Positions 3,503 through 31,194 are shown, numbered from the stretch's first letter. The stretch is DNA of 64,000 nucleotides from Promethearchaeia archaeon (GCA_029856145.1 JAHQWK010000011.1:117506-181505); one strand, 5' to 3'. A program made the numbers and translations. The notes: generated by a model from the sequence alone, not told the origin.

Positions 3503-4651
3503 TTGAGAGAATGGTCTGCTATAATCTTGGCAGGTGGTAAAGGCAAACGGTTAATGCCTTTAACTTCACAAGTTCCAAAACCTCTAGTTAAGGTTACAAA
3601 TGTTCCTATGGTCGATTATGCGATTGCACATTTATTGTATGCTAATATAAAACATATTATTATAGCATTAGCATATATGGGTAAAGAAATGAAAGAATAC
3701 ATCAAAAAAACATGGACAAAAGACAAATTGGGAGACGTGGAATTAGAATGTGAGATTCAAGAGAGTAGAGGTACCGCAGATGCGTATAGGCTTTTAACCG
3801 ATCAAATAGACTCTGAAAAAATTGTAGTTTCAATGGCAGATATTGTAACAAACCTTCCAATGAAACGTTTCATGGAATTTCACTCTGAAAAAGGGGGATT
3901 AGCTACTATTTCAATGAAAACTATTGCCAGTCATATATCTCAATATGGTGTAGTACTATTAGATGATAATAGGAAGATTTACCTTTTTTTAGAAAAACCT
4001 GCACCGATGGAATTATATTTAAGCAGTATGTCTCAACGAGAAGATCTTTTTTTACATACAAATGTTGCCAACACAGGTATATACTGTTTTAAAAAAGAAA
4101 TTGGAGATATCCTTCATGAAACAGGTTTAATGGATTTTGGTGGCGAAGTCTTTCCCTATTTGCTTGAAAACAAATATGATTTATTTGGGTTTGTTGAGGA
4201 TTATTATTGGATGGATGCAGGAAATTCTACTACCTATTTATGGGCGAATTGGGATCTTTTACGTAAATATGCATGGCCAATTTTACCCAAAGGAGTTGAT
4301 TATGATGGAATTTATATAGAGGGTGTAATAAATTCTGGACAAAATATCGTAATCGAGAAACCAACTTGTTTTGGGGAATTTGTTCAATTAGAGAATCGTG
4401 TAAAGATCAAAGAATTAACATCTATTGGAAATAATGTAACAATCGGAGAAGATACTATAATAGAGAAGAGTGCAATATGGGATGAAATTAAAATTGGTGC
4501 TGGATGTATTATAACAGAAAGTATAATTTGTAATAATTGTGAAATCGGAGATAATGTAGTTTTAGAGAGAGCGATTATTGCACCAAATTGTAAGATCAGT
4601 AGTAACTCTCAAATCAGAGATAAAACAATAGAGCTTGGAAGAGAAATATAA
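3503..4651 (+). CDS. NDP-sugar pyrophosphorylase (mannose/glucose-1-P nucleotidyltransferase family) with left-handed beta-helix
   Basis: AIILAGGKGKRLMPLT..PKPL, GTAD, FLEKP, YWMDAG, C-terminal hexapeptide repeats; TTG start preceded by GAGGT. Confidence 0.9.
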   Translation: MREWSAIILAGGKGKRLMPLTSQVPKPLVKVTNVPMVDYAIAHLLYANIKHIIIALAYMGKEMKEYIKKTWTKDKLGDVELECEIQESRGTADAYRLLTDQIDSEKIVVSMADIVTNLPMKRFMEFHSEKGGLATISMKTIASHISQYGVVLLDDNRKIYLFLEKPAPMELYLSSMSQREDLFLHTNVANTGIYCFKKEIGDILHETGLMDFGGEVFPYLLENKYDLFGFVEDYYWMDAGNSTTYLWANWDLLRKYAWPILPKGVDYDGIYIEGVINSGQNIVIEKPTCFGEFVQLENRVKIKELTSIGNNVTIGEDTIIEKSAIWDEIKIGAGCIITESIICNNCEIGDNVVLERAIIAPNCKISSNSQIRDKTIELGREI

Positions 4652-18694: not shown

Positions 18695-19348
18695 TTAGTG
18701 AGGTCTCCACTTTGAAGATATTATTATTATTATAAAAAACAACAATAGAAAAGGGGATAAAATAAAAAATGTTAATGAATAATAATAATAGAAGGTCCAT
18801 GTAATGAGTATTATTGAAGCAATTAACAATGCTACTAAATAATATAGTGAATTATTTCTTTTCATTTCATATATACTACCAAATATTATTATAAAAGATC
18901 CAAAAAACATACCTATCATTCCAACACCGGGAAGATAAGACCCCCAAAGGCTCGGTGGCTTCCAAAAAAAGTATATAGTATAATTTGTTATATAAACATA
19001 TTCTATTATAATACTCAAATTTAATGTTGAAATAATCATTAATACGCTGACAGTAAACGATTCTCCAGCAAGTTTTCCAGTATTAAGATTTCCCTTATCA
19101 ATACTTCTAAAAATATAAAAAGTAATAATTATACAAGCTAAAATTAAAATAGCTAAAATAAGATTTAAACCAAAAGGACTTAAAAAAAATCTCAAACTAA
19201 AATCCTTTATTACAAAGCCCCAATAGAAGAATACTTGCCCAAATTCATTAACAACATATGATGTAAAAATCAAAGGAAATAAGAATCCAATGAAAGTTAG
19301 TATAATTCCAACCTTAAGACTAAAAATATATATTTCGTTTTCTTCCAT
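18695..19348 (-). CDS. Hypothetical membrane protein, last gene of the rSAM cluster
   Basis: About 6 TM segments; starts 17 nt after the upstream peptide gene on the same strand. Confidence 0.7.
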   Translation of the reverse strand: MEENEIYIFSLKVGIILTFIGFLFPLIFTSYVVNEFGQVFFYWGFVIKDFSLRFFLSPFGLNLILAILILACIIITFYIFRSIDKGNLNTGKLAGESFTVSVLMIISTLNLSIIIEYVYITNYTIYFFWKPPSLWGSYLPGVGMIGMFFGSFIIIFGSIYEMKRNNSLYYLVALLIASIILITWTFYYYYSLTFFILSPFLLLFFIIIIISSKWRPH

Positions 19349-19365
19349 TTTTTATTTCCTATAAA

Positions 19366-19623
19366 TTAGGATTTTCTTTTTTTGATTTTAAAATCTTTCA
19401 TTCTTACAGTTGAATATCCCGTTCCAGCAGGATAGGTATTTCTACTGATTTCTGCTGTTAATATAAGTATAGATATTGCCCAAAAAGAGATCATTATTAT
19501 AATTATTAGCTTAAAAATTAGCGTATACCTACTATTATTAAAAAATAGTACCTTATTCATTTCTTTATTTGTTAATCCTAATTCTTTACCAATCTTATAA
19601 AACTCGATGATATCCTTAATCAT
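19366..19623 (-). CDS. Small single-TM peptide, candidate precursor P2
   Basis: 85 aa; paralog of 22245-22490 sharing FYxIGKELGL and YPxGTxYSxV..DFK. Confidence 0.8.
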   Translation of the reverse strand: MIKDIIEFYKIGKELGLTNKEMNKVLFFNNSRYTLIFKLIIIIMISFWAISILILTAEISRNTYPAGTGYSTVRMKDFKIKKRKS

Positions 19624-19671
19624 TCTTTATTCCCATTTTTTATAAATTATCCATTTTTTAAATTACAGATT

Positions 19672-20796
19672 TTATATATTTAATATGCTAGAATAGATAT
19701 TTTTGTATTTTGATAAAACTGTATCCATTTTTCCTTTTACTTTAAAAATTTTCGAATTAAAACGTACATTTTCTATTGCTCGTAAACAATAGGGCGAATC
19801 TTCTGAGTTTAAGGCATATCTTGTTCCTAAACAGCCTCCTTTACATTCATTCACCATATCACAGTTTTTACAATATCCACGTAAATTTTCTTTTTCAAAA
19901 TTGCGATTATAATTAAAAGCATAAGGATTTGATATAATTTCCTTTAGACTATTGGTTCTTACATTTCCTTCAATAAATTTATCTGAAAGGGTTAAACATC
20001 CTTTAATATTTCCATTGCTTTGAATACCTAACACTGAATATCCTGCTTGACATCCAACCCATGGTGCTAATCCCAAATTTGGTATGAATCTTGAAAAATA
20101 ACCAATACAATGTGCTCCTATTACAGGGAGTCTTCGATAGGAGTATTTTTTAACATTAATTGCAATAAACATTGCTAATGCATAATATTCTTCTCTTGAA
20201 ATCATTAATTCTTTAGGAAAGCGCCCAATAGGGACTGCTAATTGAATTTGCCAAGAAATATTTTGATCCAAAATTAAATTTTTAATTAAATCTACTTCCT
20301 TTAAGTTTTTTTTATTAATGGCTGTTATTATTGAAACTGGCAGTTTTTCTTTTTTTAAAATCTTCATTGCATTTATAGTTTTATCGTAAGCTCCTTTAAT
20401 TCCTCTAAGATAATCATGAGTTTCTGGAATTCCACCGTCTAAGCTTAAAGATACACAATCTACATCTAGTTTTTTCAATTTTTGAATATGTTTAACAAGA
20501 TTTAATCCGTTAGTAACAATTGATAAGTCCATTTTATATTTCTTAACTTCTTTCGCAATTTCAAACCAGTCCTCTCTAATTAGAGGTTCTCCACCCATTA
20601 ATGCGACACCTTTATAGCCACATGAATGCAAATCTTTTACCAATTCTAACGCTTCCTCAGTATTTAACTCATCTGAACGCGCGCTACCCGCTCTGGACCC
20701 ACAATGAATGCATAAACTATTACACTTTAAAGTAATTTCCCAAACTGCACAAGAATTTTTTATTCTACGGGTTAAAAGTGATATTAAACTTGGCAT
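19672..20796 (-). CDS. Radical SAM protein with SPASM domain
   Basis: CNSLCIHC (CX3CX2C), GGEP, VSLSLDG; SPASM cysteines in GCQAG..IKGC..CKNC..CKGGC..PYC. Confidence 0.93.
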   Translation of the reverse strand: MPSLISLLTRRIKNSCAVWEITLKCNSLCIHCGSRAGSARSDELNTEEALELVKDLHSCGYKGVALMGGEPLIREDWFEIAKEVKKYKMDLSIVTNGLNLVKHIQKLKKLDVDCVSLSLDGGIPETHDYLRGIKGAYDKTINAMKILKKEKLPVSIITAINKKNLKEVDLIKNLILDQNISWQIQLAVPIGRFPKELMISREEYYALAMFIAINVKKYSYRRLPVIGAHCIGYFSRFIPNLGLAPWVGCQAGYSVLGIQSNGNIKGCLTLSDKFIEGNVRTNSLKEIISNPYAFNYNRNFEKENLRGYCKNCDMVNECKGGCLGTRYALNSEDSPYCLRAIENVRFNSKIFKVKGKMDTVLSKYKNIYSSILNI

Positions 20797-20913
20797 TGCA
20801 ATTATCGGATTCTTTTTCTGAAATATAAATTGATTAAATTTCTTTAAAAACTTTTGTTATAAAAATTGAATATTTCATAATATAATCGCTATGGAGTATA
20901 ATTTAATTGCTTT

Positions 20914-22248
20914 TTAATTTACGGAATAGTACTTATCGAGAGTTATGATAGGATTAAAGTTCGCTAATGGTACTGTTGACTTCTTTACGCAACTTATTTC
21001 TGAAGCGATATCCTTTTTGATCATCTTTTTATTCTTTATATTACTAATTCTTAACAATCTTAATGTTCTCCTGTAAGTTTTTAGTGCATCTGATCTTAAA
21101 TTCAATTTAACAAACACTTTTGCTAAATTCCAGTAATAGATTAAATCATCCCTAAATATTTGAATTGAGTCTAACAATTTCTCTTTAGCAATTTCATAAT
21201 TTTGATTGTAAACTTCCTTTATTCCTTGATAGAAAAATACTTGAGATTTTCTTTGAATCATTGCAGAAGAGAAAAAGAACAACTTATTCGGTTTATTAGT
21301 TATTGAGAGTTCTTTTAGACGAGTCAATTGTTGCTGCTTTTCATTTTTGATAAACATTAATTTCTCTATTATTCTTTCACCAAATGCTTCTATTGATGAA
21401 AATGCAAACATTTGGGATCCTGGAATTGTTGGCAGTCTTTTAAGGGAATTAAATAGAATATTAGGAAGGTTGTATTTTATTATATATTCAATTATTTCAT
21501 AAATGTATTTTATCTCAAAAATTGAAAGATAATTGATATCCTCAATCCCTTTAAGAAAAATGTTAGCTACTTGAGGAAATCTTATTAGAATGGTCTTAAT
21601 AATTTCAAATATAATATTTTTATCTTTTCTTCTTTCAAATTCTTTTAACTTTAATATTATAAAAGTTACTAAATCCTCTTGTTCTTTTGCTAAAAAAGAG
21701 TCTTTAAAATCTACTAGATTCTCTAATAACATTTGTTTTCGAATATGCGTAATAACTTGAAAGAAATTCTCTTTTGAAGGCTTTTTGCATTCAACTCTTA
21801 AAGTGGGTATTGACTCTGTGTTATAAAATTTTCTTTCCTTTATATCAATAAATCCTATTTTTCTAAGCATTTCTGCTAACAATTCTGAGGGATAACATAA
21901 CTTATGTTGAAGTCCTTTATGAGGAATACCAAATATCCATCCTAAAATTTCCTTTTGTTGTTCATAGTTTCCATTTAAATAGGATTGAAAAGCCTTTTCA
22001 ATATCAGGTGTTTCTATTATTAGAACTCCATTAAACTGTAAGACTCTAAAAAATTCGCTTAATACATAGAGAGATTTGAAAAAACCAATATGTTCAATTA
22101 ATTGAATTGCTTTAACTTCTTCACAAGAGTTATCGGAAAATGAGAGATTTATAGCAGACATTTGTTGATCTGCTAAGATATCTTCATATAAATCAATATT
22201 GTAATAATCTGGCTCATATCTTCTTCCAGAGCCCACATTTAACTTCAT
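20914..22248 (-). CDS. Class I SAM-dependent methyltransferase fused to helical/TPR-like domain
   Basis: KLNVGSG, NID, IEH, RVLQFNGVLIIETPD; C-terminal TPR-like FYQG..YEIA..YYWNLAKVF..DALKTY. Confidence 0.8.
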   Translation of the reverse strand: MKLNVGSGRRYEPDYYNIDLYEDILADQQMSAINLSFSDNSCEEVKAIQLIEHIGFFKSLYVLSEFFRVLQFNGVLIIETPDIEKAFQSYLNGNYEQQKEILGWIFGIPHKGLQHKLCYPSELLAEMLRKIGFIDIKERKFYNTESIPTLRVECKKPSKENFFQVITHIRKQMLLENLVDFKDSFLAKEQEDLVTFIILKLKEFERRKDKNIIFEIIKTILIRFPQVANIFLKGIEDINYLSIFEIKYIYEIIEYIIKYNLPNILFNSLKRLPTIPGSQMFAFSSIEAFGERIIEKLMFIKNEKQQQLTRLKELSITNKPNKLFFFSSAMIQRKSQVFFYQGIKEVYNQNYEIAKEKLLDSIQIFRDDLIYYWNLAKVFVKLNLRSDALKTYRRTLRLLRISNIKNKKMIKKDIASEISCVKKSTVPLANFNPIITLDKYYSVN

Positions 22249-22490
22249 TTTTTATTTTTAAAATCATTTAATTTAACAGATGAATATAAGGTTCCGCTTG
22301 GATAAACAGATTTAGATCCAACAACTATAGCGACAACTATAACAACAGCTAATGAAGCTAAAAAAAATATCAATGAAAGTGTAAATAATATAGAACGATT
22401 GCCTGAAAATAAAAATGTTCGATTAATTTCACTTTTTTTTAATCCTAACTCTTTACCAATTCTATAAAATTGAGTTAATTCTTTGAACAT
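22245..22490 (-). CDS. Small single-TM peptide, candidate precursor P1 (81 aa, start re-called)
   Basis: ATG at 22490 follows an AGAGGTGA SD; aligns from residue 1 with P2; stop overlaps the methyltransferase start (ATGA). Confidence 0.8.
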   Translation of the reverse strand: MFKELTQFYRIGKELGLKKSEINRTFLFSGNRSILFTLSLIFFLASLAVVIVVAIVVGSKSVYPSGTLYSSVKLNDFKNKK

Positions 22491-22500
22491 GTTGTAAATT

Positions 22501-22508
22501 TCACCTCT
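22501..22508 (-). promoter_or_regulatory. Shine-Dalgarno site of peptide P1
   Basis: AGAGGTGA, 10 nt upstream of the ATG at 22490. Confidence 0.7.
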
Positions 22509-22699
22509 TAAATATAGAATAATGCTATATGCTTTTTTATTATAATTACATATAAAAACATTTCTTTGGTATATTAATAGTCTAAGAGATTTTAAAGCTT
22601 TAAGGTGCACTTTTCGAACATTATGAAATATTCTTGAAATTAGGAAATTATTTTTAGCTTTTTTCCCTTAAAAGTTAAGTTGCACTTAATTTTAGTTAT

Positions 22700-24508
22700 T
22701 TAGATGGCAAGCAATCTTAATTTCTTCATGATTGTATCTTTAATTTTCTCGATCCGTTGAAATGCTTCATTAGGTACAGTCTGGCTTATTCGCAAAATTG
22801 AGTTTATAAGGTCTGGTTCTAAAAGATCCTCAATCAATATTCCTCGCTCTATAAGGTTTTTACCCTCGTTATAGATTAAAAGTATAACTTTGATTATCCC
22901 TAATAATTTTTTAATACTTGTATAATTATCAGTGTCATCGAAAGCGTTTTGAATTAAGAATCCGTCTCTAATCATTTTTGCAATGAATAGAACTAACTGT
23001 TGAGATTCAGGTAAATTTTTTTCTCCAACCAATTGTAGAATATGTTTCAATTCTTGTTCTTGGGATAATATCTCATTTACTTGGTTTCTACATTGAGACC
23101 AATCAATATCTATCTCTGGCCAATCTATATCTCTCTCATACCACCATTCAGAAATGAATTGGGAATAATTTGAATATGAATTCAACCAAGTAATGGCAGG
23201 ATAATGTTTTAGATAAGCAAGTTTAGGATCCAAAGCCCAAAAAACTTGAACTAAACGCTTAGTTGTTGCTGTTACTGGTTCGCTGAAATCCCCCGCAGGA
23301 GGAGAAATAGTGCCAATGATTGATATTGAACCAATTCTTTCATTTCCTAAATGATCTTTTCCTAAAGTTCTAACAACTCCTGCTCTTTCATAAAAACTAG
23401 ATAGTTTAGATGGTAGATAAGCAGGATATCCTTCTTCTGCGGGCATTTCTTCTAATAATCCTGAAATTTCTCTCAAAGATTCAGCCCATCTTGATATACT
23501 ATCAGCTAGAACTGCAACATCATATCCCATATCTCGATAATATTCTGCAATCGTTACTCCAGAAAATAAGCTAGCCTCCCGAGCAGATACAGGCATATTA
23601 GATGTATTAGCTATAAGTATAACTCTATCTAATAATGTTTCTCCGCTTTGGGGGTCTCTAATTTCTGAAAATTGTTTCAAAATATTAGCAATTTCATTTC
23701 CAGGTTCACCACACCCAATAAATACAATTAAATCAGCATTACACCATTTAGCGAGTAATTGCTGAATCACAGTTTTTCCTGTGCCAAAACCGCCCGGAAT
23801 CGCAACTGTTCCTCCTTTTGCTATCGGAAATAATAAGTCTATAACCCTTATTCCCGTGATCAATGGCTCACGAGGATCTTCTTTTCTCATATAAGGGCGC
23901 TTTTTTGTTATTGGCCATTTTTGCAGCATTGAGAAAGATTTTTCTATACTATTTTTTTTTATTAGAAAAATCTCATCTGTGATTGTATAATCTCCTTCTT
24001 GAGCAATAAAGGATATTTCTCCATTGATAAATGGAGGGACCATTATTTTATGTTCAAAAAATGTAGTTTCTTGTATAGTACCAATAATATCTCCTGCATT
24101 GACGTTATCATTATTTTTCCTTATTGGTACAAAATGCCATTTTTTACTTCTAGATAAAGAAGGATATTTTACTCCTCTCCCTAATCTTCCATTATTAAAA
24201 TCTTCAAATACTTTTCCTAATGGTCTCTGTATCCCATCGAAAACGTTTGATAAAAGCCCTGGAGCTAATTCCATTGAAAGAGGTTCATTCAAACTAACAA
24301 CTTCTTCATTTAACTGTAGGTTTATGGTATTTTCAAAACATTGACTAATTATATGATCTGAATAGATCTGAATTACTTCTCCCAGGATATTATATTTAGA
24401 GATATTAATTAGGTCGAAAAGATGGACATGATTTTCCAGACCTTTAATTTTGATAAGCGATCCATTAATTGCAGAAATATAGCCAATTTTTATTTCTGTT
24501 TCATTCAT
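22700..24508 (-). CDS. atpA: A/V-type ATPase subunit A, second copy (GER to GEP variant)
   Basis: GGFGTGKT P-loop, [25 protein letters not shown]; reads GCGEPGNE. Confidence 0.9.
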
Positions 24509-24532: not shown

Positions 24533-24976
24533 TTATTGGTATATTATATTTTCATTACAAAATGGACATTTTTTAACAAAATTCGGCACAATATTCCCAC
24601 AATTTTTACATTTATTTATTAAAGGTTTACGGTATTCAAACTCTAGGTTGATAGGTTTAGAAATTTTAAGGTTAGGTTGTTTTAATTCCTTCTCTTCTAG
24701 AATTCGCTTTCTTTTTGTCTGTTCACTTAGTTTAGCTCTACTTTTTTTATCTGAAAACATCCTAGAATAAAGAGTTCGTTTGTTTCGTCTGAGAAATGGT
24801 CCGATAGTAGCTAAAATAATAAAGATGAGTAAAATTGAGATAATTAAAGGGTTAAAACCAAAATTGATTAGTAGATAAAATAGGTAAAGAAAAATAATTA
24901 AATAAAGCATTATCCAAATTAATTTCAAAATAACTTGTTTGCGTGATGGTTTATTTTTTTTGTCTTCTAGCGTCAT
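24533..24976 (-). CDS. Two-TM membrane protein with C-terminal zinc ribbon
   Basis: Two hydrophobic helices, basic linker, CKNC..CPFC. Confidence 0.75.
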   Translation of the reverse strand: MTLEDKKNKPSRKQVILKLIWIMLYLIIFLYLFYLLINFGFNPLIISILLIFIILATIGPFLRRNKRTLYSRMFSDKKSRAKLSEQTKRKRILEEKELKQPNLKISKPINLEFEYRKPLINKCKNCGNIVPNFVKKCPFCNENIIYQ

Positions 24977-27961: not shown

Positions 27962-29353
27962 TTACACCTTTGGTTTATAGTATTTATTAATAAAGTTCTG
28001 ATGAATTCTAATTAATTGGTTTTTATTTAAGTTAGATAATGTGTCCCAAGCAATAGCTAGGGTTTGGTTAAATTCTCGATTTTCATTTAGTTTTTGATTT
28101 AGGAATTTTTGTTCAAAATCTTCTCCAAACAGTAATAAATTCTTTTGATCAATGTTTAAACCATCCTCTCCAACAATTGATATAAGGTCTTTAACTTCAA
28201 GATAATTGGAATATGAAGCTAATAATTGAGAACTAACATCAGCATGATCTTCCCTTGTTTTATCCTTACCAATAGCATCTTTCATCAATCTTGATATCGA
28301 AGCTAAAACTTCGAAAGGAGGATATACAGCTTTCTTATGTAAGCTACGACTAAGAACTAATTGTCCTTCAGTTATGTAACCAGTTGTGTCCGGTATTGGA
28401 TGAGAAATATCATCATTTGGCATTGTTAAAATTGGGATTTGCGTTATTGTTCCCTTTTTCCCCTTAATCTTCCCTGTTCTCTCATAAATTGATGCAAAGT
28501 CCGAATAAATATATCCCGGATACCCTTTCCTACTTGGAATTTCTTCTTTAGCTGAACTAAGTTCTCTTAAGGCTTCTGCATAATTGGTCATATCAATTAA
28601 TATTACTAAAACATGCATGTCCTTTTCAAAAGCATAATATTCAGCAGTGGTTAATGCGATTCTTGGTATAATTAATCTTTCGATTATTGGATCGTCTGCA
28701 AAATTTATGAAGGAAATGATATTTTGAAGTGTTCCACTCTCCTGAAAACGGTTTAAAAAATATATTGCTTCGTCTTGAATTATACCGATACCACAAAAAA
28801 TTATTACAAAAGGCTCCTCTGAAGTAACTTTAGCTTGAGTTGCTATTTGAGCTGCCAATTTATTATGAGGTAATCCTTGCCCACTAAAAATCGGAAGTTT
28901 TTGACCCCTAATAAGGGTAAATAAGCCATCAATTACAGATATACCTGTTTGAATAATATCCTGGGGATATTCTCTAGCAAAGGGATTAATAGGAATTCCA
29001 TTAATATCTCTTCGAACGTCAGTCAATATATCAGAATCCAGAACGTTTTTTGTTCTAATATCAATTGGGTTTCCAAGTGAGTTGAATGTCTGTCCAAACA
29101 TATCTTTTGAGATATTAATCTTAAATGTGTCTTCTGTAAATATGATTTCTGCATTTTCTGAAGATAATCCAGAAGTATCTTCGAAAACTTCAACGACTAT
29201 CATATCTTCACTCATTTTTACTATTTGCCCCGTTCTAATATTATTATCATCTGTTTTAATCTTAACAATTTCGCCATATTGAGCATCATGCTCATTTTTT
29301 AAAAACAAGAGTGGTCCTATTATTTGTTGAATCTTCTTATAAATTATACTCAT
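27962..29353 (-). CDS. atpB: A/V-type ATPase subunit B
   Basis: [45 protein letters not shown] arginine finger. Confidence 0.95.
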
Positions 29354-31194
29354 TTTTTCTTATATACCCCATGAGTTAGTTTTAATGCTTCTATTTCACT
29401 TAGTAGTTTATTTTTAAGACTTTCTAATTTATGAAAATCTTCATTACGTATAGAGCGATTTATTCTTAAAACTGTATTTATAACAGTAAGTTCCTTAATA
29501 TCGTCAATATAAAATCCTTGTTTAAGAAGTTCTTTGCTTTCTTTATATATTAAAAGAATTATTTTAATCATTCCAAGTAATTTTGTGATACTTGTATAAC
29601 TATCAATGTCATCGAAAGCATTTTGAATTAAAAATCCATCTTTAATTAATTTAGCAATAAATATAGTTAATTGCTGATCTTCAGGTAAGTTTTCTACCCC
29701 TATCAATTGAGTAATATACTTTAACTCATTATCTTTAGATAAGATCTCATTTACTTGTCTACGGCAATCAAACCAATCAATATCAATCTCCACCCAATCA
29801 AAATCTCTTTCATACCACCACTCAGAAATGTATTCTGGATAATTTGAATATGAATCTAACCAGTTAATTGCGGGATAATGTTTAGAATATGCTAATCCGG
29901 CATCTAAAGCCCAAATACCTTGAACAAAGTTTTTAGTTGTAGCTGTAACAGGTTCACTAAAATCACCCGCAGGTGGAGAGACAGAACCAATAATTGTTAA
30001 AGAACCAATTCTTTCCTTTCCATCTAAATCAGTTCCTAATAATTCTACAATTCCAGCGCGTTCATAAAAGCTTGAAAGTCTGGAGGATAAGTATGCAGGA
30101 TAACCCTCCTCTGCGGGCATTTCTTCTAATAATCCTGAAATTTCTCTTAAAGATTCAGCCCATCTTGATGTACTATCAGCTAGAACTGCAACATCGTATC
30201 CCATATCTCGAAAATATTCTGCGATAGTGACTCCTGAAAATATACTAGCTTCACGTGCAGAAACAGGCATATTTGATGTGTTTGCAATAAGAATTATACG
30301 TTCTAATAAAGGGCGTCCAGTTTGGGGATCAATTAATTCAGAAAATTGGTTTAAGACATCAGCTATCTCATTTCCACGCTCCCCACAACCAACGTATAGC
30401 ACGACATCAGCATCACACCATTTCGCTAACGAATGTTGTATAACTGTTTTACCTGTTCCAAACCCTCCAGGAACCCCAATTGTACCACCCTTAGTTATTG
30501 GAAATAATAAATCTATAACTCGAATCCCCGTAATCAAAGGCTCTTGAGGCATATTTCTCCTCTTGAATGGCCTAGATTTAGTTACTGGCCATTTTTGTAG
30601 CATAGAAAACGATTTCTCTTTATTATTTATTTTTAAACGGTAAATTTCATCAATAATAGTATAATCCCCTTCCTCTACTAGAAATGACAATTCTCCAGAA
30701 ATATTAGGAGGAACCATAATTTTATGCTCTATTAAAGCTGTTTCTTGCACTGTTCCTATTATATCCCCACTTGAAACTGTTTCCTTAAGTTTTCTCTGTG
30801 GAGCAAAATACCATTTCTTTTTTCGTGAAATTGGATTTATTTCTAGACCTCGTTGTAGTCCCCCTTCTTTAAAGGAATTAAAGGCTTTTTTTAATGGTCT
30901 TTGGATTCCATCAAAAACATTACCCAATAATCCAGGTGCTAACTCCATAGAGAGTGGTTCATTTAAACTAATTACTTCATCATTAATTCTTAAATTTACA
31001 GTACTTTCAAAACATTGAGCTACAATATGATCAGAATAAATTTGAATTACTTCTCCTAAAATATTATATTTTGTGACTTTAATCAGATCATGAAGTCTAA
31101 TATGGCGTTCTAATCCTTTTATCTTTATTAAAGACCCCACTATTGTTGAAATGTATCCACGACTTTGATTATCTTTATATTTGGATTTGATCAT
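29350..31194 (-). CDS. atpA: A/V-type ATPase subunit A, canonical copy
   Basis: [29 protein letters not shown]; stop overlaps the atpB start. Confidence 0.95.

Follow-up and report, generated by a model that had tools for sequence, protein, structure and literature searches.

The closest described counterparts of the system analysed here are the binary spliceotide systems RhaX/RhaA, RcsX/RcsA and RasX/RasA of Rheinheimera, in which a radical S-adenosylmethionine (SAM) enzyme with a SPASM domain is likewise encoded beside its precursor, without a RiPP recognition element (RRE; RiPP, ribosomally synthesised and post-translationally modified peptide) or partner protein; these spliceases need no Y protein, and the leader helix of the precursor binds the enzyme (PMC11414181, PMC11626197). 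Their splice site is the motif X-Y-G (PMC11414181, PMC11626197, PMC11002830), tyramine excision corresponds to the loss of C8H9NO (135.06 Da) with formation of a ketoamide, and spliceotide clusters have been found in "bacterial and archaeal genomes" (PMC11626197). The type I spliceotide systems, PlpX/PlpY/PlpA of Pleurocapsa and the plasmid locus of Nostoc sp. C057 (L085), belong to the same branch of the enzyme superfamily as the archaeal enzyme described below and use Nif11/NHLP leaders together with a small PqqD-like Y protein, neither of which is present at our locus. Further parallels are the GDL systems (DUF1843/DUF1842, TIGR03913), with tandem small precursor genes, and mycofactocin (MftA/B/C) and pyrroloquinoline quinone (PQQ; PqqA/D/E), where the target of a radical SAM/SPASM enzyme is a conserved Tyr close to the C-terminal end of a short ribosomal peptide. 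Here we examine a 64,000-nt stretch of DNA (the window) from a Promethearchaeia archaeon (GCA_029856145.1, JAHQWK010000011.1:117506-181505), whose genome measures 3.55 Mb with 28% GC, and propose from its sequence that a gene cassette at positions 18695-22490 encodes a radical SAM/SPASM, RiPP-type and spliceotide-like maturation system.

The cassette is a single minus-strand run of five open reading frames (ORFs), encoding in order a small peptide (P1), a methyltransferase fused to tetratricopeptide repeats (MT-TPR), the radical SAM/SPASM enzyme (rSAM), a second small peptide (P2) and a multi-transmembrane (multi-TM) protein. A first-pass annotation of the same DNA had reported this run, a strong Shine-Dalgarno sequence ahead of P1, and an overlap, as ATGA, of the P1 TGA stop with the MT-TPR start, and our reading of the ORFs agreed on each point. 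Homologues of the window proteins come from metagenome-assembled genomes (MAGs) labelled Lokiarchaeota or Promethearchaeota, and DNA of the window is also present in marine-sediment metagenomes of several studies.

The evidence that ties the two peptides to the two enzymes is their joint distribution. We searched 154 genomes of the window's order and found strong matches to the peptide profile in 55, all in one family and with one to four copies each. An rSAM gene lay within ~3 kb in 54 of these 55 genomes, the sole exception ending at a contig edge, so that the co-occurrence test put forward in the first-pass annotation came out in its favour: the peptides were not found apart from the enzymes. 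Orthologues of rSAM (at least 57% identity) and of MT-TPR occurred in the same genomes and at the same loci as the peptides, all three sharing the same 53-57 of 134 family genomes and always lying adjacent, and the few mismatches were genes cut by contig ends. Adjacency of precursor and enzyme extends to distant Asgard families and to Thermoplasmatota. At the level of the phylum, the MT-TPR profile matched 108 of 400 genomes (27%) from many families, and rSAM adjoined MT-TPR in 16 of the 18 loci that we fetched. Compared with the rSAM of the window or with its type-B relative, the rSAMs of these loci showed 41-68% identity, and nearly all of the 16 also had small paralogous proteins nearby that share the peptide motifs. 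The enzyme pair and one to four peptide paralogues form a fixed module.

Across 20 fetched loci, the usual gene order of the module was rSAM, then one to four tandem peptides, then the methyltransferase, with the last peptide overlapping the methyltransferase start. In the window and in its closest relatives, the halves have changed places (P1-MT, rSAM-P2) with both couplings preserved: a peptide gene still comes after rSAM, and the methyltransferase start is still overlapped by a peptide gene. Clustering of the neighbours of 40 loci revealed nothing else that was conserved: no protease, transporter or exporter, RRE/PqqD or other tailoring gene, in agreement with the earlier statement that no protease or exporter is adjacent. 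In one subclade (L052-L056), one or two membrane proteins of ~340 aa with a CxxC..CxxC motif directly follow the MT-TPR gene.

The gene for the ~6-TM protein, which the first-pass annotation had counted in the run, is indeed present, but it is not a conserved member of the module. Direct BLAST over the loci placed homologues next to the module only in the window and in loci L043 and L046, and because it accompanies the module in so few loci we do not regard it as a core part, nor is a role as exporter or immunity partner supported. A search of the ESM Atlas with this protein returned only weak topological look-alikes. A 309-nt contig that is 100% identical to the window covers only positions 19238-19546, running from the 3′ portion of P2 into the beginning of the 6-TM gene; it comes from a run labelled metatranscriptomic that is flagged as probably DNA, we draw no conclusion from it, and as a hint of co-transcription across this junction it is at most weak.

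P1 and P2 are 40% identical (BLASTP E = 9e-21), a similarity well above what chance would give, and their alignment contains the features noted at first annotation: an N-block, F-Y-[RK]-I-G-K-E-L-G-L..E.N, and a C-block, Y-P-[SA]-G-T-x-Y-S-[ST]-V...D-F-K.K-K, separated by a poorly conserved hydrophobic stretch. Residues G12, L17, Y63, G66, Y69 and D76 are invariant in the P1 family alignment. In an AlphaFold2 (AF2) model of P1, helices span residues 2-14 and 19-29 and a TM helix spans 32-59, and the C-block lies in a low-confidence tail; this tail, which holds the core, is unstructured in the model and is basic in both peptides. Neither P1, P2 nor the 6-TM protein had any match in Pfam, NCBIfam or PDB sequence searches, and the two peptides also lack the G-D-L motif of DUF1843-type precursors. 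Peptides of the P1/P2 family contain no Cys, and we therefore rejected thioether formation of the sactipeptide or ranthipeptide kind.

Relatives of P1 and P2 show how these peptides are built. Besides one-TM forms such as P1 and P2, with tails of the type T-Y-x-P-G-T-x-Y-G-[ST]-I..D-F, the family includes three-TM forms of 145-175 aa that carry the same leader, stand up to seven in tandem, and have a Y-P-[YF] motif after the first TM helix and a C-terminal x-Y-G-V-[YF]. When a profile of 27 peptides was run against 1.84 billion representative proteins, only 79 clusters matched. Among them were soluble relatives with no TM helix at all, in which one leader is followed by two to five tandem cores of the form Y-K-[AS]-G-T-x-Y-G-T-[IV]-S, and one protein made up of three leader-plus-core units. 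A pattern scan located soluble multi-core precursors in Thermoplasmatota MAGs, where they are interspersed with three rSAM paralogues showing 40-49% identity to the enzyme of the window. Such an architecture is classic for RiPP precursors: the N-block behaves as a leader, Y..GT.Y[GS]T as the core and the TM helix as a replaceable spacer, which strengthens the division into leader, anchor and core that the first-pass annotation had suggested.

Several of these loci deserve separate mention. Three from Thermoplasmatota (L079:3389-7651, L080:6852-10759 and L081:6747-12084) each interleave three radical SAM/SPASM genes with two soluble precursors, every precursor having one leader and two or three repeated Y-K-A-G-T-x-Y-G-T cores; in L079 and L080, an unrelated class I methyltransferase is encoded ~2 kb downstream on the opposite strand. 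Seven tandem three-TM paralogues of 146-174 aa lie directly upstream of the rSAM-MT pair at L077:59-3944 (+; genome G191). Between rSAM and MT at L070:4521-4718 (-; G281), we found a 65-aa Lys/Pro-rich ORF without TM helix or leader motif that retains G-Y-P-Y and a C-terminal S-Y-G-V-Y-S-R-K, and that may represent a minimal soluble substrate.

We then compared the enzyme with known radical SAM families. The rSAM matched PF04055 (92 bits) and PF13186 (34 bits) in Pfam, and its sequence contains C25, C29 and C32 as well as a complete seven-Cys SPASM pattern (CX13GX4C...CX2CX5CX3C...C). The CX3CX2C motif sits at residues 25-32, leaving no room for an N-terminal RRE, as had been remarked at first annotation. 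In NCBIfam, the best model was TIGR04103 (226 bits against a cut-off of 725, aligned over residues 14-342) and the second TIGR03913 (192 bits against 592); these two models were top-scoring for every cassette rSAM tested, at 169-230 bits, far below the curated cut-offs. TIGR04103 (nif11-class maturase 3) is the model that we take to be IPR026482, the PlpX subclass named in PMC11002830, an assignment that fits the Nostoc plasmid locus, where the annotated enzyme stands beside a small Y-like protein and a Nif11 precursor with L-Y-G near its C-terminus. Lower scores were obtained with AhbD (150 bits), NirJ2 (135), AhbC (117) and NirJ (114), mostly through alignments limited to the N-terminus, and with MftC (120), PqqE (84) and the dynobactin enzyme DynA (74); sactipeptide models also scored below TIGR04103. 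The cyclophane-forming families XyeB, GrrM, YhhB, FxsB and AmcB were all missing from the 25 best NCBIfam matches of rSAM, and their models instead match an anSME-like paralogue (L010) in the same genome. With regard to the GDL systems, the score for TIGR03913 is below its cut-off and no DUF1843/GDL precursors are adjacent; GDL precursors are soluble DUF1843 peptides with G-D-L and no Tyr core, and GDL enzymes exceed the archaeal ones by ~100 aa and branch as a clade apart. A GDL cassette on an Aureibacter tunicatorum plasmid (L088:1650-4420), in which an rSAM gene is grouped with genes for three DUF1843 peptides and for one small class I methyltransferase, parallels the pairing of rSAM with a methyltransferase.

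In a maximum-likelihood tree of 40 rSAM sequences, in which PlpX-type enzymes were represented by the single Nostoc reference, the archaeal cassette enzymes and an Agathobacter enzyme formed the sister group of a clade comprising Nostoc TIGR04103, Tropicibacter and GDL sequences. Support for the joint archaeal and PlpX-type/GDL clade was 98/99 in this tree and 97 in a second one. TIGR04053, MftC and others fell outside the joint clade in the 40-sequence tree, MoaA likewise lay outside, and the genome's own AhbD/NirJ2-like paralogue was outside it in the second tree. The second tree, a quick one, drew the anSME paralogue into the clade, but the branch leading to it was extremely long (6.9), and we treated this placement as an artefact. 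Model scores and tree placement together ruled out a haem-enzyme reading (AhbC/AhbD/NirJ), a grouping that the first-pass annotation had named as an outcome that would count against it; the enzyme groups instead with the TIGR04103/TIGR03913 peptide maturases. Among bacterial plasmid sequences, rSAM finds its best match in the Agathobacter enzyme (38% identity). Just upstream of its gene in Agathobacter rectalis NZ_CP143948.1 (L086, ~3600-3990, +), a sequence labelled plasmid that yet carries tuf and fusA, we noticed an unannotated 35-aa ORF ending in V-M-Y-G-T-G-V-R-M, and an MFS transporter follows the rSAM gene; judging by these sequences, ORF and enzyme are likely an undescribed bacterial spliceotide-like pair.

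The second Tyr of the core is invariant throughout the archaeal family, and the residue before it varies freely. Gly follows it in 32 of 51 distant cores, in 19 of 23 three-TM tails and in 15 cores of the Thermoplasmatota loci, the same X-Y-G pattern as at splicease sites. The window family is nested in the tree among enzymes associated with Y-G, on a long stem branch (0.63), indicating that its change from Gly to Ser is derived and coincides with accelerated change of the enzyme; as a single event, this coincidence is only suggestive. The archaeal systems thus share with the binary spliceotides a helical leader and an invariant Tyr after a variable residue, with Gly next in most relatives. 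They differ in that the archaeal enzymes constitute a clade of their own below the family cut-off, that the window precursors have Y-S rather than Y-G, that in most precursors leader and core are separated by one or three membrane helices, and that in Asgard archaea the fused MT-TPR is an obligatory partner.

The second enzyme of the module combines two recognisable folds. An AF2 model of MT-TPR (pLDDT 89) begins with a Rossmann-like domain of the class I SAM methyltransferase type, in which motif I (G-x-G) and acidic residues for SAM binding are present, and residues 1-159 superimposed on 3sm3 with Z 15.1 and a root-mean-square deviation (rmsd) of 2.6 Å over 151 residues (VIA-align). Foldseek likewise returned class I methyltransferases (E = 2e-6, on the order of 1e-6), and the structures matching this domain include the RiPP methyltransferases LahSb and CgnL. 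SAM-binding motifs were invariant among 25 homologues (N4, G6, G8, D19, D27, E52, H53). The C-terminal part consists of stacked helix-turn-helix repeats of ~34 residues, and residues 332-426 matched the idealised three-TPR protein 1na3 with Z 13.6 (a value common among helical repeats) and an rmsd of 2.1 Å over 86 residues. The protein's own Pfam matches were marginal (PF08241, E = 0.01; PF07719, E = 0.27), and its homologues carry PF13489/PF08241 and PF07719. One proposal of the first-pass annotation fared poorly here: it had suggested that the TPR domain may supply substrate recognition for rSAM, which is unlikely because the Thermoplasmatota systems have rSAMs and no MT-TPR. The TPR domain more likely serves the methyltransferase than rSAM. 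Carboxylate-clamp TPRs bind C-terminal peptides.

We propose that rSAM and MT-TPR act on P1 and P2 as ribosomally synthesised substrates, which would undergo a Tyr-centred radical modification and then methylation. As a whole we hold this explanation with moderate confidence; the comparative evidence makes the substrate relationship of the peptides to the enzymes its firmer part, and a very probable one. Each peptide would consist of a two-helix leader (I-G-K-x-L-G-L..K-E-I), a hydrophobic helix acting as spacer and anchor, and an unstructured basic tail carrying the core Y-x-x-G-T-x-Y-S-T..D-F. The rSAM most likely recognises the leader directly, like the bacterial spliceases that work without a Y protein, and its radical reaction would have at its centre the second of the tyrosines, which is invariant (Tyr69 in P1, Tyr70 in P2). 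The class I methyltransferase would then methylate the product or a nearby residue, with the TPR domain perhaps holding the leader or the conserved basic C-terminus. Because the module has no protease or exporter, the modified protein probably stays intact and anchored in the membrane. The sequences themselves show how the genes are laid out, that they occur together, how the families are related and that the precursors follow a leader/core logic. From them we infer that modification takes place, at which residue and by what chemistry, where the methyl group goes and how the peptides lie in the membrane.

As for the chemistry, tyramine excision is a tentative but serious candidate for the family, and somewhat less so for the Y-S clade; the mass change may accordingly be -135 Da rather than the -2 Da anticipated in the first-pass annotation. 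In the fuller scenario, the spliced tail close to the membrane would end up with an electrophilic alpha-keto-beta-amino acid that is methylated in addition; this we advance more cautiously still, as possible though rather unlikely. A number of observations weigh against our proposal. The rSAM does not reach the score cut-off of the PlpX family and does not fall inside the PlpX clade, whose other sub-branch (GDL) is not known to share the PlpX chemistry. The X-Tyr-Gly splice motif is absent from both window peptides (L-Y-S in P1, G-Y-S in P2), and Ser takes the place of Gly in 50 of 51 copies of the window family. The Thermoplasmatota loci have no MT-TPR. Finally, charge bias according to the positive-inside rule, which is ambiguous for one-TM forms, predicts for the three-TM relatives that the leader is inside and both Tyr motifs are outside, and a cytoplasmic rSAM would therefore have to act before membrane insertion. 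For P1 and P2 themselves, the TM helix ends ~23 residues before the C-terminus, as in tail-anchored proteins, and by this analogy the peptides could plausibly be inserted only once translated, which would place insertion later than modification in the cytosol.

The most substantial alternative concerns the reaction and leaves the substrates as they are. In place of splicing, rSAM could cross-link Y-x-x-G-T-x-Y-S internally through a tyrosine C-C or C-O bond of the cyclophane or PQQ type (-2 Da), and the methyltransferase could then O- or N-methylate the product. SPASM enzymes often join aromatic residues, as PqqE, the three-residue cyclophane-forming enzymes and DarE do, and two invariant tyrosines flanking an invariant Gly would suit such a reaction, as would the loss from the window family of the Gly of X-Y-G and the position of rSAM outside the PlpX clade. 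Yet none of the five cyclophane families appears among the best matches of rSAM, DynA trails TIGR04103 by a wide difference in score, the cyclophane enzymes resemble the anSME-like paralogue instead, and the three-TM and soluble relatives often retain only the C-terminal x-Y-G-[VT]. We regard a cross-link as doubtful, though worth keeping in mind.

Two further readings would change the role of the peptides. If the conserved tail gave rise, through an unlinked protease, to a small product that diffuses away, either a PQQ- or mycofactocin-like cofactor or a secreted peptide, then the resemblance of its Tyr-containing C-terminus to MftA and PqqA, the multi-core precursors of Thermoplasmatota, which suggest release of units, and the patchy distribution across the phylum, which suits an accessory metabolite, would all find a place. 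Mycofactocin and PQQ, however, depend on a peptidase, on an RRE protein acting as chaperone (MftB/PqqD) and on additional enzymes. None of these is found at the cassette or conserved across the 40 loci, just as no transporter or tailoring gene is; the MftC and PqqE models score far lower, MftC falls outside the clade, and the core is highly conserved on a basic tail beside the membrane. This makes a diffusible product improbable. Slightly less probable again is that P1 and P2 are not substrates at all and serve as membrane adaptors holding rSAM and MT-TPR at a lipid, quinone or other protein target. The highly conserved N-block could be a docking helix for the TPR domain, and the products are membrane-anchored, but relatives with tandem cores and no TM helix would make no sense as anchors, the invariant residues sit in an unstructured tail, copy number ranges from one to seven per locus as with precursor genes, and the families nearest to rSAM are peptide maturases, with the AhbD/NirJ-like paralogue lying elsewhere.

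Full-text literature searches on TIGR03913, TIGR04103 and archaeal radical SAM/SPASM enzymes with transmembrane precursors found nothing, and we came across no description of an archaeal membrane-peptide rSAM/MT-TPR system, although an earlier survey listing of splicease types could include this clade. Asgard archaea are the closest prokaryotic relatives of eukaryotes. If our proposal is right, about a quarter of the sampled Asgard genomes, and some Thermoplasmatota MAGs, would carry a protein-editing system, and no archaeal enzyme would stand closer to the bacterial tyramine spliceases than its rSAM. As substrates, intact small membrane proteins without release machinery would be unusual for RiPP-type chemistry, and backbone-editing or Tyr-radical chemistry would extend to archaea and to membrane proteins. 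Should the reaction be splicing, backbone splicing of ribosomal products would be new both for archaea and for membrane proteins, and the window family would add X-Y-S to the X-Y-G site. The rSAM and MT-TPR would also offer a new enzyme pair for protein engineering and a handle on the surface and membrane biology of Asgard archaea, and the natural soluble multi-core precursors, together with the split between Y-S and Y-G clades, make the chemistry testable in Escherichia coli.

Table 1. Features of the candidate maturation cassette, in positions of the window; precursor, leader, spacer and core are predicted assignments.
Feature	Position	Strand	Basis or remark
P1, 81-aa precursor	22245-22490	-	ORF and Shine-Dalgarno sequence
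P1 leader, residues 1-31	22398-22490	-	family alignment, AF2 model
P1 TM spacer/anchor, residues 33-58	22317-22394	-	
P1 core, Y63-F77	22260-22304	-	
P1 invariant Tyr69 (codon), followed by Ser70	22284-22286	-	
Shine-Dalgarno-like AAGAGGTGA, 10 nt upstream of P1 ATG	22501-22509	-	sequence reading
MT-TPR, methyltransferase-TPR protein, 444 aa	20914-22248	-	
MT-TPR class I SAM methyltransferase domain, residues 1-159	21772-22248	-	
MT-TPR helical repeats after the methyltransferase domain, ending in ~3 TPRs, residues 330-428	20965-21261	-	
rSAM, radical SAM/SPASM enzyme, 374 aa	19672-20796	-	
rSAM CX3CX2C, residues 25-32	20701-20724	-	
P2, 85-aa paralogous precursor	19366-19623	-	starts 48 nt after rSAM stop
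P2 core, Y64-F78	19390-19434	-	invariant second tyrosine is Tyr70
Multi-TM (~6-TM) protein, 217 aa	18695-19348	-	sporadic accessory neighbour

Upstream of the cassette, the window holds two full-length genes for A/V-ATPase subunit A, at 22700-24508 (-) and 29350-31194 (-), which are 70% identical. What we call the second atpA is the last gene of the operon that immediately precedes the cassette; its score of 750 bits is below the cut-off of 972 for the archaeal AtpA equivalog. We considered the ATPase operon as a functional link and rejected it, because only the nearest relatives (L041-L043) share this context. The arrangement with a second atpA is kept in those three loci, as is a 147-aa protein encoded between atpI and the second atpA (24533-24976, -), which has two TM helices and a C-terminal zinc ribbon.

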